From Pseudomonas sp. PIC25 (GTDB taxonomy: Bacteria > Pseudomonadota > Gammaproteobacteria > Pseudomonadales > Pseudomonadaceae), in assembly GCF_002286785.1 (NCBI RefSeq), contig NZ_MUJY01000041.1:46710-110709 (forward strand): a DNA stretch of 64,000 nt, given 5' to 3'. The notes beneath the pieces are model-generated. The model had not been told where the DNA came from. It searched no databases and saw nothing but the letters and a program-made list of their open reading frames with translations. Positions 21,729 through 37,043 of the stretch are shown one piece after another; the stretch's first letter is position 1; every line of letters starts with the position of its first letter. A program made the position numbers and the translations under genes.

Positions 21729-21857
21729 CCGAGCAAACGGCGCAAGGAAGCGCCAGGGCAGCCGTCGCCCGGGAGCCGGCTGCATGACGGGGGCAACGAC
21801 GCTCTCGCGCCGGCCCTCGAGCGGAAACGGACTACCGTTCGAGGGCCACCCTTCGAA

Positions 21858-29158: not shown

Positions 29159-30778
29159 TCAGCCCTCAGGATGCGAAACCACGGCGCCCCACTCCAGCCC
29201 GAACCGCGCCAGGTACTTGCGCAACCGGTCGGCGTCGTTGGGATTGGCCTTGCCTTGGCGCGACACAGCGAACAGCCGCCGACCGGCATCCGACAGGCTG
29301 CGCGCCTCGCGGCAAACGCCGATCACGGACTCCAGTTGCAGCCGGTCGAAGAGGTCCAGCCCAGCCAGTGTCTCGTCGCCCAGTAACGCACGCAGCGGGG
29401 TCGCGTCGGGTCCATCGCTTTGCCAGGCGCGCCGCAACCGTTGCAGTTCCTCCTCCACCAGTGTTTCGTCGATCCGGCCGCTGTCGGCCAACGTCGCCAT
29501 TCGCGTGACGGAGGCCGACAGTTCGCGGAAATTGCCGGCCCAGCGCGCCTCCGCCGAAGTGGCGAACGCCAGGTAGCGGCGCCGCGCCTCGACGTTGAAA
29601 CGCACCTGCCGACCCAGCTCGCGAGCATGCCGTTCCAGCTCGAAATCGATGTTCGGCTCGATGTCCTCGCGCCGCCCGGCGAGACCGGGCAGCTCGAACG
29701 TCCATAGATTGATACGGGCAAACAGGTCCTCGCGGAACAGCCCGTCCGTCACCCGACCGCGCAGGTCTCGGTGCGTGCCGGCGATCAGGAGGAAGTCGCT
29801 TTCCACCTCCCGGTCGCTGCCCAACGGGAAGAAGCGCCGTTCCTCGATGGCCTTGAGCAGCATGGCTTGCTCGTCCAGGCCCAGTTCGCCGATCTCGTCG
29901 AGAAACAGCATGCCGCCGTCGGCCGCCCGCAACAGGCCATCGCGCGCATTCTGCGCTCCGGTGAAAGCACCTTTGACATGGCCGAACAACGCGGACATGG
30001 CACCATCGCCGCGCAAGGTCGCGCAGTTCACTTCGACGAAGCGGCCTTGGATCTGATGCCGTGCACGCTTCAGCTCGTAGATTCGCCGTGCCAGGAACGA
30101 CTTGCCCGCCCCCGTGGGCCCCACCAGCAGCATGGGCGCCCTGGAGCGAATGGCGACCCGCTCGATCTGCTCGACGGAACGGTTGAACGCCGCGTTGCGC
30201 GTGGCGATACCCGACTTGAGAAAGGCCAGCGTCTCTTGGCGCTCGCGGCGAAAACGCGAGGCGATGCGGTCGTAGCGCGACAGGTCGAGATCGATCAGGG
30301 TGTGGATGCCACTGGCCTTCCGCTCGGTATCCAGGCGCCGGGCCGGTGACGTCTGGACCAGCCGCGCAGGCAGATAACGCGCCTCGGTGAGCAGAAACCA
30401 GCAAATCTGCGCCACATGGGTCCCGGTGGTGATGTGCACCAGATAATCCTCATGCTCGGTATCGAAGGCGTAGCCCGAGGTGAAGTCGTGCAGAGCCCCG
30501 TAGACCTCTTCGAAATCCCAAGGATCGCGCAGTTGCATCGCATGCAGACGCACCTCGGTTTCCGGCGATACCTGGGCGATGTCATCGCGGATGCGCTCGG
30601 CCAGCCCCCGGTCGCGGGCATCCTCGCAGTGGATCAGCTCCAGGCGATGGATCAGCAGGTCGGGCTGCTGGCATAAGCCGACCGTGGGGCGCCATTTTCT
30701 CCAGCGTTCCGCGCCCTTGCCCACCCGGTCGAGAGTCGTTCCGAGAAAGCCGATGGCCACGGTTTGCCTTTCCGTCAT
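29159..30778 (-). CDS. rtcR: Sigma-54-dependent transcriptional regulator RtcR (N-terminal CARF-like sensor, AAA+ domain, HTH)
   Basis: Walker A (GPTGAGKS), the GAFTGA motif and a C-terminal HTH, 539 aa. Divergent from the rtcB operon. Confidence 0.9.
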   Translation of the reverse strand: MTERQTVAIGFLGTTLDRVGKGAERWRKWRPTVGLCQQPDLLIHRLELIHCEDARDRGLAERIRDDIAQVSPETEVRLHAMQLRDPWDFEEVYGALHDFTSGYAFDTEHEDYLVHITTGTHVAQICWFLLTEARYLPARLVQTSPARRLDTERKASGIHTLIDLDLSRYDRIASRFRRERQETLAFLKSGIATRNAAFNRSVEQIERVAIRSRAPMLLVGPTGAGKSFLARRIYELKRARHQIQGRFVEVNCATLRGDGAMSALFGHVKGAFTGAQNARDGLLRAADGGMLFLDEIGELGLDEQAMLLKAIEERRFFPLGSDREVESDFLLIAGTHRDLRGRVTDGLFREDLFARINLWTFELPGLAGRREDIEPNIDFELERHARELGRQVRFNVEARRRYLAFATSAEARWAGNFRELSASVTRMATLADSGRIDETLVEEELQRLRRAWQSDGPDATPLRALLGDETLAGLDLFDRLQLESVIGVCREARSLSDAGRRLFAVSRQGKANPNDADRLRKYLARFGLEWGAVVSHPEG

Positions 30779-30780
30779 AG

Positions 30781-30840
30781 CGATACCTAAAGATAAATAG
30801 CGATACAAAAATATAGCGTTTATCGTCATTCTCGATACAG
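30781..30840. promoter_or_regulatory. AT-rich upstream region with CGATAC repeats; candidate RtcR/IHF upstream activating region
   Basis: CGATAC at 30781, 30801 and 30833, plus an inverted TATCG at 30821. The tract is about 35% GC in a roughly 65% GC genome. Confidence 0.3.
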
Positions 30841-30926: not shown

Positions 30927-30942
30927 TGGCACGCCACTCGCT
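30927..30942 (+). promoter_or_regulatory. Sigma-54 (RpoN) promoter of the rtc operon
   Basis: TGGCAC-gccac-TCGCT, close to the consensus TGGCAC-N5-TTGCW. Sits downstream of the AT-rich region and points towards rtcB. Confidence 0.65.
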
Positions 30943-31058
30943 ATATCCCTTCCGACCGCATCGCCATGCAGGCCGACGGGCCGGGAGTTCCTCCCGCCGG
31001 TGCGCGGGCCCACCCTGGTGTTGGCGCCGCGTATGCCGCCGCAGCAATGATCGGTCGA

Positions 31059-31127
31059 TGCCTGGTGGCTCAGTCGGTAGAGCAGTCGCCCGAGGCGGCC
31101 GTCGCAGGTTCGAGTCCTGCCCAGGCC
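31059..31127 (+). ncRNA. tRNA-like RNA module 1 (acceptor-like stem, canonical D-arm and T-arm, anticodon arm replaced by a 6-bp triloop hairpin)
   Basis: D-arm GCTCAGTCGGTAGAGC and T-arm GCAGGTTCGAGTCCTGC are present. A 6-bp acceptor pairing TGCCTGG/CCAGGCC flanks them. The hairpin GTCGCC-CGA-GGCGGC sits where the anticodon arm would be. Confidence 0.55.
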
Positions 31128-31196
31128 TTCGATAGCTCAGTCGGGTAGAGCAGCCCTCGCAGAGGGCCTGTCGCGGGTTCGAGTCCCGCTCGAATA
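31126..31196 (+). ncRNA. tRNA-like RNA module 2, directly abutting module 1
   Basis: U8-A9 junction, D-arm GCTCAGTCGGGTAGAGC, T-arm GCGGGTTCGAGTCCCGC and a 5-bp acceptor pairing TTCGA/TCGAA. A GCCCTC-GCA-GAGGGC triloop hairpin replaces the anticodon arm. Confidence 0.55.
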
Positions 31197-31427
31197 CCTG
31201 CCCTTCCAAGGCAGTTCACACATGAGCAGTACCCGCTGGCGTGGCAAAGGGAAGGACCCGATGCCACCGCCGATCCGCCCGGCACCGAAGCCGCGCGACG
31301 GGCAGGACACGCATTGCAGCCGCAGGACGCGGCGCCGGATCAGGATGATCGCGATGCGGGCCGCCCCGACGTGCCGCGATGGACGCCCGGCGGATCGGCG
31401 AACGCCAGCACTGAAAGGAGAAGAAGA

Positions 31428-32573
31428 ATGAAAATGCTGAAGCGCTTTGTAGTGAAGAAGAACGAACGCGGCCTGTTGTTTTCCGAGGGCGACTTCCAGT
31501 CCGTCCTGGAGCCTGGCCTGTACCTGCGCTTCGACCCGTTCAACCGGCTGGCGGTAGAAACCTGCAGCCTCAATGCCCCGTTGTTCGAGCACCGCATCGC
31601 CGGTTACCTGCGCAAGAACGAGCCCGCCCTGATCGAGCGCCACTTCGCGCGCATGGATCTGGGCGAGCACGAAGCCGGCCTGCGCTACGAAGACGATGTA
31701 CTGGTGGAAATTCTTGCGCCGGGCGCCCGTCGTCTGTACTGGAAAGGCCAAGCCGACCAACGCCTGGAGCGCATCGGCCTGCGCCACGGCTACCGGCTGG
31801 ATGCGGCGCTGGTCTCTGTGCTGACCCAACCCAGCCTGCGTAGCCAGGGCCTGGTGGGCCTCGACGCGATACTACTGGTGCAGGTACCGGCGTTCCAGGT
31901 CGGCGTGCTCAAGGTCAACGGCGATGTGGCAGAGCTGCTCCCGTCCGGTCAGTACGGCTTCTGGCGCTTCAACCGGCAGATCGGCGTGGAATTGGTGGAT
32001 ACACGGCTCCAGACACTGGAAGTCGGCGGCCAGGAAATCCTCACCCGCGACAAAGTCAGCCTGCGCCTGAACTTGGCCGCCAACTGGCGCTACAGCGATG
32101 TGCTGCTGGCTCATGCACGACTGGCGAAGCCGCAGGAACACCTGTATCGCGAGCTGCAGTTCGGTCTGCGTGCAGCGGTGGGTACCCGGACGCTCGACGA
32201 ATTGCTGGAGAACAAACAGATCATCGACGAGACCGTGAGTGCTCACCTTGCTCGCAAACTGGCGGATACCGGCCTGGAAGTCAGCAGCCTCGGCGTGCGT
32301 GACATCATCCTGCCCGGCGAGATGAAGGCCCTGCTGGCCCAGGTGGTGGAAGCCGAGAAAGCGGCCCAGGCCAACGTGATCCGCCGGCGCGAGGAAACCT
32401 CGGCGACCCGTTCGCTGCTGAACACCGCCAAGGTGATGGAAGAAAACCCGACGGCACTGCGCCTGAAGGAACTGGAAACTCTCGAGCGGGTAGCCGAGCG
32501 GATCGACCGGATTTCCGTTTTCGGCGGCCTGGACCAGGTGCTGAACGGTCTGGTGAATATCGCACCGCGCTGA
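31428..32573 (+). CDS. SPFH/band-7 (stomatin-prohibitin-flotillin-HflK/C) domain protein with no obvious TM segment
   Basis: AAGGAG RBS. The C-terminal half is a clear SPFH domain (LARKLADTGLEVSSLGVRDIILPGEMKALLAQVVEAEKAAQANVIRRREE). Confidence 0.8.
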   Translation: MKMLKRFVVKKNERGLLFSEGDFQSVLEPGLYLRFDPFNRLAVETCSLNAPLFEHRIAGYLRKNEPALIERHFARMDLGEHEAGLRYEDDVLVEILAPGARRLYWKGQADQRLERIGLRHGYRLDAALVSVLTQPSLRSQGLVGLDAILLVQVPAFQVGVLKVNGDVAELLPSGQYGFWRFNRQIGVELVDTRLQTLEVGGQEILTRDKVSLRLNLAANWRYSDVLLAHARLAKPQEHLYRELQFGLRAAVGTRTLDELLENKQIIDETVSAHLARKLADTGLEVSSLGVRDIILPGEMKALLAQVVEAEKAAQANVIRRREETSATRSLLNTAKVMEENPTALRLKELETLERVAERIDRISVFGGLDQVLNGLVNIAPR

Positions 32574-32659
32574 TCAAAGTCTGTAAGGAGCGACGCCATC
32601 CGCTCACCCGAACATCCGACGGGCTGGTCGATCCAGACCGCGCAAAGAAGGACATGAAC

Positions 32660-33880
32660 ATGAAAGAACACAGCTACCAACTGCTGGAAGTCGCCAACGG
32701 CAAGCCGATCAAGCTTTGGACCCAGGGTGTACCGGTGGAAGAGGACGCCAAGCAGCAACTGACCAACACCGCGAAGATGCCGTTCATCTTCAGTCACCTG
32801 GCAGTCATGCCGGACGTACACCTGGGCAAGGGATCGACCATCGGCAGCGTGATTCCCACCGTCGGTGCGATCATTCCGGCCGCCGTCGGCGTGGACATCG
32901 GTTGCGGCATGATCGCCGCGCGCACCTCGCTGGTGGCCGCCGACCTGCCGGACAACCTGCACGGCCTGCGCAGCGCCATCGAGAAAGCCGTACCCCACGG
33001 CAAGACCTTCGGCAAGCGCGACCAGGGCGCCTGGGCCAATGTGCCGGACCAGGCCGATCACGCCTGGAAGGCCCTGGCCGGCCGCTTCAAGGCGATCACC
33101 GACAAGTACCCGAAGCTGGAGAAAACCAACAACCGTAACCACCTGGGAACCCTGGGCACCGGCAACCACTTCATCGAGGTCTGCCTGGACGAGGCGCAGC
33201 GCGTCTGGGTCATGCTGCACAGCGGTTCGCGCGGTGTGGGTAACGCCATCGGCAACACCTTCATCGAACTGGCCCAGGCCGACATGCGCCAGCACATCGC
33301 CAACCTGCCGGACCGCGACCTCGCCTACTTCGAAGAAGGCAGCAAGCACTTCGACGACTACGTGGAAGCGGTCGGCTGGGCGCAGGACTTCGCCAAGCAG
33401 AACCGAGCCTTGATGATGCATGCGGTGATCGAGGCGGCGCGCAAGGTCATCGGCAAGCCGTTCGAGGCCAACCTGGAAGCGGTGAACTGTCACCACAACT
33501 ACGTGCAGAAGGAGCGCCACTTCGGCCAGGAGGTCCTGGTGACCCGCAAGGGCGCGGTGTCGGCGCAGAAGGGCGAGCTGGGCATCATCCCCGGCTCCAT
33601 GGGAGCCAAGAGCTACATCGTGCGCGGCCTCGGCAACGAGGAGGCGTTCTGCTCCTGCAGCCACGGCGCCGGCCGGACCATGAGCCGGACCAAGGCGAAG
33701 AAGCAGTTCACCGTGGAAGACCAGATCCGCGCCACCGCTCACGTCGAATGCCGCAAGGACAAGGACGTGATCGACGAAATCCCGATGGCTTACAAGGACA
33801 TCGACGCGGTGATGGAGGCCCAGCGCGAGCTGGTGGAAGTGGTGCACACCCTGCGGCAAGTGGTGTGTGTGAAGGGATAG
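32660..33880 (+). CDS. rtcB: RNA-splicing ligase RtcB
   Basis: PFIFSHLAVMPDVHLGKGSTIGSV, the metal-ligand histidines and a C-terminal HGAGR motif. ATG at 32660 (alternative 32654). Confidence 0.95.
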   Translation: MKEHSYQLLEVANGKPIKLWTQGVPVEEDAKQQLTNTAKMPFIFSHLAVMPDVHLGKGSTIGSVIPTVGAIIPAAVGVDIGCGMIAARTSLVAADLPDNLHGLRSAIEKAVPHGKTFGKRDQGAWANVPDQADHAWKALAGRFKAITDKYPKLEKTNNRNHLGTLGTGNHFIEVCLDEAQRVWVMLHSGSRGVGNAIGNTFIELAQADMRQHIANLPDRDLAYFEEGSKHFDDYVEAVGWAQDFAKQNRALMMHAVIEAARKVIGKPFEANLEAVNCHHNYVQKERHFGQEVLVTRKGAVSAQKGELGIIPGSMGAKSYIVRGLGNEEAFCSCSHGAGRTMSRTKAKKQFTVEDQIRATAHVECRKDKDVIDEIPMAYKDIDAVMEAQRELVEVVHTLRQVVCVKG

Positions 33881-35906: not shown

Positions 35907-36023
35907 ATGAATAAGGAAGAACGACATCCACTCCCCGCCCCGATGCGGGCACGGGTGCTGGAAGAACTGGCGCGCCTGGAACGCATCGAGCGGCAACTGG
36001 CCCATTCGGGAGAACAACCATGA
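35907..36023 (+). CDS. Possible 38-aa upstream ORF overlapping the rtcA start (ATGA)
   Basis: Encodes [38 protein letters not shown]. The stop overlaps the rtcA ATG. The RBS is poor. Confidence 0.2.
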
Positions 36024-37043
36024 TGGGCGACTACCTGGAAATCGACGGTTCCATCGGCGGCGGCCAGATCCTGCGCAGCGCCTTGAGCCTGTCGATGGTC
36101 AGCGGGCGGCCGTTCCGCATCCACAATATCCGCTCCGGTCGCAGCCGGCCCGGCCTGCTGCGCCAGCATCTCACCGCCGTGCTGGCAGCAGCGGAGGTGT
36201 GTGGAGCGGAGGTGGCAGGCGCCCAGCTCGGCTCGCAGACGCTGGACTTCCAGCCCGGCGAGATTCAGGCAGGCGACTATCGCTTCAATATCGGTAGCGC
36301 CGGAAGCGCCACCCTGGTGTTGCAGACGTTGTTCCCGGCGCTGCTGGACGGGCCGGCGGCCAGCCGGGTACGCATCTTCGGCGGTACCCATAACCCGGCC
36401 GCGCCACCGGCCGATTTCATCGAGCGCAGTTGGTTGCCGCTGTTACGCCGGATGGGCGCTCAGGTGGACTTCCGCCTGCTGCGCCATGGCTTCGCGCCAG
36501 CGGGTGGCGGTGAGATCGAGTGCGAGGTGGTGCCGGCCCGGGACGCCGCTGCATCTCGAAGCACGCGGCGAAGTACTGGAGCAGCGTGCCCTAGCCCTGA
36601 TCGGCAATCTGCCCGGCCATATCGCCGAGCGTGAGCTGCAACGGGTAGCGCGCCGACTGCGCTGGCCGCAAGAGCAGTTGCACCAGCGCGCGGTGGCGAG
36701 CGCCGGGCCGGGCAATATCCTCCTGCTGGAGATCGCCTGCACCGATGTCTGCGAGCTGTTCAGCGCCATCGCCCAGACCGGCGTCCGTGCCGAGCGGGTG
36801 GCCGACCAGGCCATCGACGAAGCCCGCGCCTGGCTGCTCAGCGAAGCCGCGGTGGGCGAGCACCTGGCCGATCAGTTGCTGCTGCCCCTGGCGCTCGCCG
36901 GTGGCGGCAGTTTCACCACGCACCGGAGCAGCGCGCATCTGGAGAGCAACATCCAAGTCATCCGTCAGTTCCTGCAGACGGATATCCGCGTGGAGCCGTT
37001 GAGCGATGCCCGGCTGCGGGTGACGATCGGTAGCAGCGCTTGA
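36020..37043 (+). pseudogene. rtcA: RNA 3'-terminal phosphate cyclase RtcA with an apparent +1 frameshift at 36533-36542
   Basis: The N-terminal part (36020-36538) carries [14 protein letters not shown] and [12 protein letters not shown]. The C-terminal part (36537-37043) carries RGEVL...HIAERE...AAVGEHLADQLLLPLALAGG in the other frame. The switch falls in CCGGCCCGGG. Conceptual length is 340 aa. Confidence 0.75.

Follow-up and report, generated by a model that had tools for sequence, protein, structure and literature searches.

A tandem pair of probable Band-7-associated tRNA-like modules in the leader of an rtcB operon of Pseudomonas sp. PIC25

What do bacterial Rtc systems repair, and what purpose is served by the dedicated non-coding RNA that accompanies many such systems? 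These questions lend interest to the rtc locus of Pseudomonas sp. PIC25, which we examined in a window of 64,000 nucleotides (nt) of contig NZ_MUJY01000041.1 (coordinates below are those of the window). Two abutting tRNA-like modules, M1 and M2, lie in the leader of an operon that encodes a Band-7 protein and the RNA ligase RtcB. Both are very probably Band-7-associated tRNA-like RNAs (b7a-tRNAs), a class whose definition we take from a secondary description in the preprint of Wang et al. (bioRxiv 10.1101/312249). The parts of the two modules, with lengths in base pairs (bp), are as follows.

31059-31127, plus strand: M1, tRNA-like (ARAGORN, Rfam tRNA model, covariance model R1)
31060-65 / 31121-26, plus strand: M1 acceptor, 6 bp, with T31059 and C31127 opposed and unpaired
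31068-83, plus strand: M1 D-arm, GCTC-AGTCGGTA-GAGC, canonical in sequence
31085-90 / 31094-99, plus strand: M1 anticodon-like stem, GTCGCC / GGCGGC, 6 bp, closed by a CGA triloop at 31091-93
31104-20, plus strand: M1 T-arm, GCAGG-TTCGAGT-CCTGC, canonical in sequence
31128-31194, plus strand: M2, tRNA-like (ARAGORN, model R1)
31128-32 / 31190-94, plus strand: M2 acceptor, TTCGA / TCGAA, only 5 bp, from the sequence
31135-51, plus strand: M2 D-arm, equivalent to that of M1, canonical
31153-58 / 31162-67, plus strand: M2 anticodon-like stem, GCCCTC / GAGGGC, 6 bp, closed by a GCA triloop at 31159-61
31173-89, plus strand: M2 T-arm, GCGGG-TTCGAGT-CCCGC, canonical in sequence

Detection, conservation and class of the modules

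A first-pass annotation of this DNA, made from the sequence and a list of open reading frames (ORFs), had described two tRNA-like modules at 31059-31196 with canonical D- and T-arms and triloop-capped stems. This description was borne out by the sequence, by ARAGORN and, for M1, by the Rfam tRNA model. ARAGORN called a 'tRNA-Ser(cga)' at 31058-31130 and a 'tRNA-Cys(gca)' at 31126-31198, and no further tRNA in the 64 kb. With the Rfam tRNA model (RF00005), M1 scored 44.5 bits, above the gathering score of 29 and with E = 3.3e-6 in a search of the whole window that left M2 unreported. Model R1, built from 73 orthologous M2 sequences including that of the window, returned two sites only, M1 at 49.7 bits and M2 at 87 bits, the latter score being partly circular because this M2 is a training member. 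The variable region of M1 measures 4 nt. The same annotation had the modules overlapping by 2 nt without a spacer and unable to decode. The 7-bp tRNA frames do overlap by 2-3 nt, the acceptor helices lie 1 nt apart (C31127), and decoding is precluded by the triloops, the acceptors of 5-6 bp and the absence of a CCA end from both modules. The next helix begins 1-3 nt past the end of each module. The pair sits 234-369 nt 5' of the Band-7 ORF, with rtcB next downstream.

The folding check proposed in the first-pass annotation gave a divided answer. The whole leader (487 nt) folded better than its shuffles (z = -3.55), and this fold recovered helices P1 and P4 (described below), the M1 cloverleaf and the 3' helices, but the folding energy of the 156-nt module segment alone was not significant (z = -1.46). 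Since the energy of the segment is unremarkable, the case for the modules rests on homology and covariation.

We draw on 80 loci from species-representative genomes, gathered via alignment of Band-7 homologs. About 25 are from Pseudomonas; the others are mostly beta-proteobacterial and include a single contig each of Desulfobulbus and Rhodospirillales. Band-7 and RtcB adjoin the RNA in essentially all 80 loci, a linkage seen from the protein side only, as every locus was fetched through Band-7. Two T-arm motifs, 70-76 nt apart and at a constant distance from the Band-7 start, were present in 69 of the 79 evaluable loci, the window included, in both gamma- and beta-proteobacteria; among the other evaluable loci, six had a single module, one had a degenerate second module and three had no module. 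The sharing of this layout by 69 of 79 loci implies that the tandem is old and not peculiar to this genome. Model R1 detected an M2 in some 75 loci, where it scored 62-93 bits except for one degenerate copy (L026), which scored 38. When viral contigs were scanned for exact matches to the M2 signature from D-stem to acceptor, there were 0 hits, and a phage origin of the modules was rejected on this result.

The M2 sequences of 73 loci (alignment A2) were compared with 500 shuffles and with controls in which pairing partners were slid; the sequences are related, so that raw covariation counts exceed the number of independent events, for which the slid controls correct in part. The covariation score was 0.389, compared to 0.135 in shuffles (0/500) and 0.05-0.11 in slid controls. 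Paired cells amounted to 89.5%, compared to 75.8% in shuffles and 31-44% in slid controls, and cells with a double change numbered 228, compared to 70.5 in shuffles (0/500). None of the 73 sequences departed from the others in the D-stem or at the elbow nucleotides, which are T54, T55, C56 and A58 of the T-loop and the GG pair of the D-loop. The anticodon-like stem was 98.3% paired, with compensatory change in 5/5 pairs. The acceptor emerged as a 5-bp helix, 90.8% paired and with a G-C / C-G swap in 30 of the sequences; in a 7-bp frame the outer two positions (1-2 / 71-72) paired in only 34.7% of cells. Pairing in M1 was counted element by element, in Python, in 19 Pseudomonas loci. There, the acceptor of 5-7 bp covaried, the anticodon-like stem of 5-6 bp showed 3-5 pair types per position, and the loops measured 3-6 nt and never 7.

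The loop that closes the anticodon-like stem behaved differently from the stems. Loop lengths of M2 orthologs spanned 3-9 nt with varied sequences: 29 of the 73 were 7-nt loops with varied 'anticodons', 27 were tetraloops (10 UUCG, 13 GNRA), eight were triloops and a few were of other kinds. The triloops of the first-pass annotation are thus present in both window modules, but they are a detail of this lineage, as the arms of relatives end in UUCG or GNRA tetraloops or in 7-nt loops. Its view that the modules are maintained rather than decaying was supported by the stem covariation seen in M2 and in Pseudomonas M1. Covarying stems combined with an unconstrained anticodon-like loop exclude both neutral decay and decoding. 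On the alignments, the constrained positions are those of the tRNA elbow and stems, and the free positions are those of the anticodon. This pattern indicates selection for the tRNA L-shape and, as part of it, for how long the anticodon arm is; the ability to decode or to be charged is not kept.

Both modules share the described features of b7a-tRNA, namely adjacency to Band-7 and RtcB, a tRNA-like cloverleaf, and homology that includes the Pseudomonas aeruginosa element. The first-pass annotation had treated them as unprecedented, which they are not. The preprint places a predicted 'band 7-associated tRNA' next to Band-7 and RtcB, credits it to Burroughs and Aravind 2016, and proposes a cofactor role for an RNA that then lacked experimental validation (Wang et al., bioRxiv 10.1101/312249). 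Beyond this preprint, we found no treatment in the literature of the combination of an SPFH protein, RtcB and a tRNA-like RNA. Two annotated genes are likely instances of the same class. In Pelobacter carbinolicus, Pcar_R0061 lies between rtcR and the stomatin-like, rtcA and rtcB genes; the genome paper calls it a 'mutant tRNA' and notes its reciprocal mutations and buried CCA. PA4581.1 of P. aeruginosa lies between rtcR and the rtc genes, lacks a CCA and is detectable by quantitative reverse-transcription PCR (qRT-PCR) (2026 paper, PMC13637947). The window element resembles the known ones in being a tRNA-like gene directly 5' of a Band-7/stomatin-like gene in an rtcB operon with a divergent rtcR, and in having a cloverleaf maintained by reciprocal changes and no usable CCA end. 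It differs in having two abutting modules, where the examined P. aeruginosa locus has one, and arms that end in triloops instead of a 7-nt loop. The passages on this element in the secondary description and in the Pelobacter and P. aeruginosa accounts speak of a single tRNA-like gene and make no mention of the 5' domain, the hairpin after M2 or the 3' domain described below.

By contrast, the likeness to YrlA suggested in the first-pass annotation did not withstand a covariance search. The RNA resembles YrlA, or bacterial Y RNA (RF02553; rsr-yrlBA-rtcBA), in being non-coding, having a tRNA-like domain and being co-transcribed with rtcB under RtcR, and the role proposed for YrlA, as cofactor of a scaffold protein or competitor for anticodon nucleases, is comparable (PMC7790460; bioRxiv 10.1101/312249). 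However, YrlA is circularly permuted to the order T-arm, closed acceptor hairpin and D-arm, binds Ro60 through a stem of its own and is encoded beside rsr, whereas the cloverleafs of the window are unpermuted, no Ro60-binding module was found in them, and the operon is without a TROVE gene. The RF02553 match reached 29.8 bits against a gathering score of 69, covered only model positions 28-81 and left the columns of the acceptor hairpin non-pairing. It joins the T-arm of M1 to the D-arm of M2, and we rejected YrlA or Y RNA identity as an artefact of a dimeric tRNA, a type of YrlA false positive that Chen et al. report having filtered out (PMC4201824).

The larger leader and its variation among lineages

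The modules form the middle of a conserved, covarying leader of ~475 nt that comprises a 5' domain, M1, M2, a hairpin and a 3' domain. Outside the modules, the leader matched no Rfam family, even at E <= 10. Its further parts are listed here.

30953-31057, plus strand: 5' domain, ~105 nt between the transcription start and M1 (alignment A5, 49 loci)
30953-57 / 31053-57 and 30960-63 / 31048-51, plus strand: helix P1 of the 5' domain, with support within Pseudomonas only
30967-73 / 31038-43, plus strand: helix P1c/P2 of the 5' domain (alignment A5)
30975-81 / 30996-31002, plus strand: helix P3 of the 5' domain (CACGGGC / GCCGGTG), with a conserved purine-purine mismatch, 92.9% paired
30983-95, plus strand: hairpin capping P3, 86.9% paired
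31003-07 / 31027-31, plus strand: helix P4 of the 5' domain, 89.4% paired, 5/5 pairs covarying
31198-31214, plus strand: hairpin resembling an anticodon stem-loop, CTGCC-CTTCCAA-GGCAG, 3 nt past M2
31227-31240, plus strand: second copy of the motif ACCCGC(C/T)GG(T/C)G, compare P3 (alignments and minimum-free-energy fold)
31268-31400, plus strand: 3' domain (RNAalifold, 38 loci; also in the single-sequence fold of this leader)
31268-79 / 31389-31400, plus strand: outer long-range helix of the 3' domain, CGCCGATCCGCC / GGCGGATCGGCG (RNAalifold)
31286-31302 / 31365-81, plus strand: inner helix nested within it (RNAalifold)

The covariation score of the 5' domain in the 49 loci was 0.295, compared to 0.162 in shuffles (0/500), and a GYATGCCGCC motif at about 31030-40 was invariant. 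Across beta-proteobacteria, P1 was 48% paired in MAFFT columns that are unreliable there, and P1 was dropped as a helix shared with that group. In 44 of 75 loci, the hairpin that follows M2 closed a loop of 7 nt with a stem of 4-6 bp. The stems covaried, and the loops bore the signature of an anticodon loop: C32 in 37/44, U33 in 39/44, three variable 'anticodon' positions, A37 in 41/44 and C or A at position 38 in 43/44. Another 19 of the 75 loci had a 4-nt loop, mostly GNRA, on this hairpin. The motif copy at 31227-31240 opens a local hairpin, GGCGTGGCA...TGCCACCGCC. In the 3' domain, 23 of 26 predicted pairs showed compensatory changes, and the domain stops about 25 nt 5' of the Shine-Dalgarno sequence. 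It also contains a small conserved hairpin at 31313-31325 (CCGC-AGGAC-GCGG in the window, GACCGCAGGACGCGGTC in P. donghuensis, L013) whose loop displays GGA much as an RsmA/CsrA binding site does, not far from AAAGGAG, the Shine-Dalgarno region.

Several lineages carry altered versions of the modules. Beta-proteobacterial M1 retains only its acceptor, its T-arm and a mini D-arm whose loop is of the UGGU type; a small GNRA hairpin is sometimes present as well. Directly between this reduced M1 and M2, about 22 of 50 beta-proteobacterial loci (for example L035, L036, L041, L054, L058 and L065) have N-CCA; a looser count of N-CCA gave 31, compared to 16.8 +/- 3 in shuffles. An RNase P cut at M2 would therefore leave a mature-looking tRNA-like 3' end in these RNAs. 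P. aeruginosa (L081) has M2 only, at the same position, with the loop CCACGAA and a model R1 score of 83.6 bits; M1 alone is replaced (1100-1155 of that locus). This M2 ortholog appears to be PA4581.1, annotated as 'tRNA-Arg4' in strain PAO1. In P. donghuensis, P. aegrilactucae and P. entomophila (L013, L018 and L025), both cloverleafs have collapsed to plain hairpins. All four of these loss variants retain the 5' domain, the hairpin after M2, and the operon with Band-7 and RtcB.

In about 17 loci, mostly of Burkholderiales of the Comamonadaceae/Sphaerotilaceae type, the modules and Band-7 are present without an adjacent RtcR or sigma-54 promoter, and RtcB is present wherever the contig reaches that far. 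The linkage of the modules to Band-7 and RtcB is thus independent of RtcR. Nine RtcR-less loci (L057, L058, L065, L066, L068, L072, L073, L074 and L078) have 5-14 ordinary-looking tRNA genes ~1-2.5 kb upstream on the same strand. In Anabaena, TrcR co-regulates a tRNA array, rtcB and a slipin-family gene under translational stress (PMC10272220).

Promoter, operon and the Band-7 protein

The genes are arranged in the order rtcR, divergent from a sigma-54 promoter that is followed by the leader, Band-7, RtcB, a HEAT-repeat protein, a 205-amino-acid (aa) protein without a family, and RtcA.

29159-30778, minus strand: rtcR, divergent (Pfam RtcR and Sigma54_activat)
30777-30826, strand not given: two direct repeats ATAGCGATAC, 20 nt apart, and a third related copy, ATAGCGTTTATCG (repeat search and sequence)
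30927-30942, plus strand: sigma-54 promoter TGGCACGCCACTCGCT, TGGCAC-N5-TCGCT (sequence and conservation)
31428-32573, plus strand: Band-7/SPFH protein ('slipin family'), 381 aa, first ORF of the operon (Pfam Band_7, residues 152-323)
32654-33880, plus strand: RtcB RNA ligase (Pfam RtcB, E = 1e-132)

The sigma-54 promoter that the first-pass annotation had read at 30927-30942 is present, and some 58 related loci have its motif 450-590 nt ahead of the start codon of Band-7. Between promoter and ATG we found neither a sigma-70-like promoter nor a plus-strand terminator, in agreement with the placement of the modules in the RtcR/sigma-54-controlled leader of the rtcB operon. The ATAGCGATAC and ATAGCGTTTATCG repeats lie 5' of the promoter, in the AT-rich region that separates it from rtcR, and overlap the start codon of rtcR; they are candidate upstream activating sites for RtcR. 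The annotation had also reported that no Ro60/Rsr gene is present, and a profile search found no TROVE gene among the operon ORFs, the part of the 64-kb window that was scanned for TROVE. The HEAT-repeat protein was considered as a divergent Ro60 and rejected, as it gave generic HEAT/alphaRep matches only.

The Band-7 protein, the presumed protein partner of the RNA, is 97% identical to a Pseudomonas indica protein. Its residues ~188-376 match stomatin (PDB). An AlphaFold model with a predicted local distance difference test score (pLDDT) of 83.7 aligned with stomatin, HflK/C, prohibitin, and the shoulder and cap helix of the major vault protein (MVP), the Foldseek match of the full-length model to the MVP elements having an E of about 1e-9. 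The protein is accordingly modelled as stomatin-like and predicted to form oligomers, the aligned proteins all being ring- or cage-forming; we do not claim from this model that it is vault-like in identity. Residues 1-190 (31428-31997) are predicted to form a beta-rich domain of three similar five-strand units (pLDDT 92), which neither Pfam nor NCBIfam places in a family and which gave no significant match to other structures. The vault ribonucleoprotein (RNP), composed of MVP with its SPFH-like shoulder, vault RNA and the TROVE protein TEP1, offers a parallel in that an SPFH-fold oligomer-former is here encoded beside a small structured RNA. It differs in that a cage of the Band-7 protein is hypothetical.

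Two observations concern other parts of the window. The rtcA gene appears to be frameshifted: Pfam RTC positions 4-164 are in ORF 36020-36634, and the remainder (RTC_insert and RTC positions 171-221) is in the overlapping ORF 36201-37043 in another frame. These parts share one frame in a related locus (L012), and the window copy is a pseudogene or reflects a sequencing error. At 21734-21852 (plus strand), the RsmW small RNA family (RF02809) matched at 52.8 bits, barely over its gathering score of 52.

Possible roles of the modules

Taking the analysis as a whole, we lean toward the interpretation that the b7a-tRNA-like leader modules provide a nuclease-proof, tRNA-shaped cofactor, scaffold or decoy that acts with Band-7 and RtcB; any one mode of action is rated much less likely than this interpretation overall. 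On operon induction, the modules would be transcribed from the RtcR/sigma-54 promoter inside the leader, and their capped arms would yield a tRNA-shaped RNA that anticodon nucleases could not cut there. This RNA would work with oligomeric Band-7 and RtcB as Y RNA does with Ro60/Rsr. It might hold tRNA-binding repair factors or broken tRNA on a Band-7 assembly, or it might compete with tRNAs for ribotoxins, and the modules may act within the leader or after excision by tRNA-processing nucleases.

Several observations weigh against this interpretation. The level of PA4581.1 in P. aeruginosa was unchanged on induction of the Rtc proteins (PMC13637947), which fits poorly with simple co-induction. 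A recognisable RNA-binding fold was not found in the N-terminal 190 residues of the Band-7 protein. By comparison of the loci, the tRNA shape is dispensable in some lineages, because three species have lost both cloverleafs and P. aeruginosa and six of the 80 loci are single-module, with Band-7/RtcB kept. Finally, P1, M1, M2 and the hairpin are joined by linkers of 0-3 nt, which is more suggestive of a single composite RNA than of tRNA-sized RNAs released separately.

The strongest competing explanation, which we consider possible although clearly less probable than a tRNA-shaped cofactor, is that the modules act in cis. They would serve as processing or stability signals, by way of RNase P, RNase Z or RNase E entry, in the manner of tRNA punctuation. 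As such they would cut the 5' domain from the mRNA or, jointly with the 5' and 3' domains, govern how well the Band-7/rtcB mRNA is translated and how long it lasts, and the excised pieces would be without a function of their own. tRNA punctuation of polycistronic transcripts and the mascRNA of MALAT1 are tRNA-like processing modules of this kind. As in those systems, a tRNA-shaped, non-decoding element is found inside a longer transcript and could recruit RNase P or RNase Z; unlike in them, the modules of the window form a conserved tandem that is linked to one particular protein, and processing here is putative. A role in cis is consistent with the position of the modules inside a continuous, covarying ~475-nt 5' untranslated region without an internal promoter or terminator, with a 3' domain that ends shortly before the Shine-Dalgarno sequence, with linkers too short for independent genes, with the N-CCA that precedes M2 in the beta-proteobacterial loci, and with the retention of the remaining leader in lineages that lack the cloverleafs. 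However, a processing signal would need neither two modules nor an invariant elbow and an anticodon-like arm maintained across gamma- and beta-proteobacteria. Moreover, the 5-bp acceptor would make M2 a poor RNase P substrate by the usual measure of 12 bp of acceptor plus T-stem, and the modules persist downstream of tRNA arrays despite the different upstream organisation of those loci.

A further, rather improbable reading starts from the composite nature of the leader. The ~475 nt would be a single modular RNA built of tRNA parts, and it would be joined in a dedicated repair RNP by RtcB and by a soluble SPFH protein that forms cages or rings. In such a particle, the anticodon-loop mimic after M2 would be exposed to anticodon nucleases as their bait or sensor, and tRNA-binding factors would dock on the cloverleafs. 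If true, bacteria would have a counterpart of their own to vault particles and to Ro60-Y RNA.

The feedback signal to RtcR that the first-pass annotation had envisaged is unlikely as a primary role, and we place it slightly below the RNP. In this scheme, a ribotoxin or another nuclease would cut the leader, for example in the 7-nt loop of 31198-31214, and the tRNA-shaped fragment so released, with its 2',3'-cyclic phosphate, would bind the CARF domain of RtcR and amplify induction. RtcR is reported to respond to nicked tRNAs or 5' tRNA halves that end in a cyclic phosphate (PMC7790460, PMC10159003). The C-U-NNN-A-(C/A) hairpin of 44 of 75 loci would suit such a bait, and capped cloverleaf arms would channel the cut to it. 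However, the leader is made only once RtcR is active, and could therefore only amplify induction, not sense damage. In addition, 19 loci carry the shorter, mostly GNRA loop in place of the 7-nt loop, and the modules persist beside Band-7 and RtcB where RtcR is absent, which argues that bait for RtcR is not their primary role. Least probable by far are decaying tRNA pseudogenes or a working tRNA-Ser(CGA) and tRNA-Cys(GCA): ARAGORN gives anticodons, the PAO1 ortholog is annotated as tRNA-Arg and some lineages have lost one or both modules, but against decay stand compensatory changes in every stem that varies, a D-stem that never does and tertiary nucleotides invariant in about 70 species, and against working tRNAs the 3-nt loops of the window, 'anticodons' that differ from species to species, short acceptors, the missing CCA and the 1-nt spacer.

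In the literature that we found, b7a-tRNA has been characterised no further than one qRT-PCR measurement. Features that are possibly new here are the near-universal dimer, the capped arms, the truncated acceptor, the anticodon-loop mimic, the 5' and 3' leader domains and the natural loss variants. Annotation of these elements as tRNA genes, such as tRNA-Arg4 of PAO1, is very probably wrong. The window and its relatives give the RNA a testable anatomy, with constrained and free positions, a usual dimer, and a larger covarying leader that includes the anticodon-loop mimic. Because P. donghuensis, P. aegrilactucae and P. entomophila are natural knock-outs of both cloverleafs, and P. aeruginosa has a single module, the function of this RNA in the Rtc system should be testable in tractable Pseudomonas.

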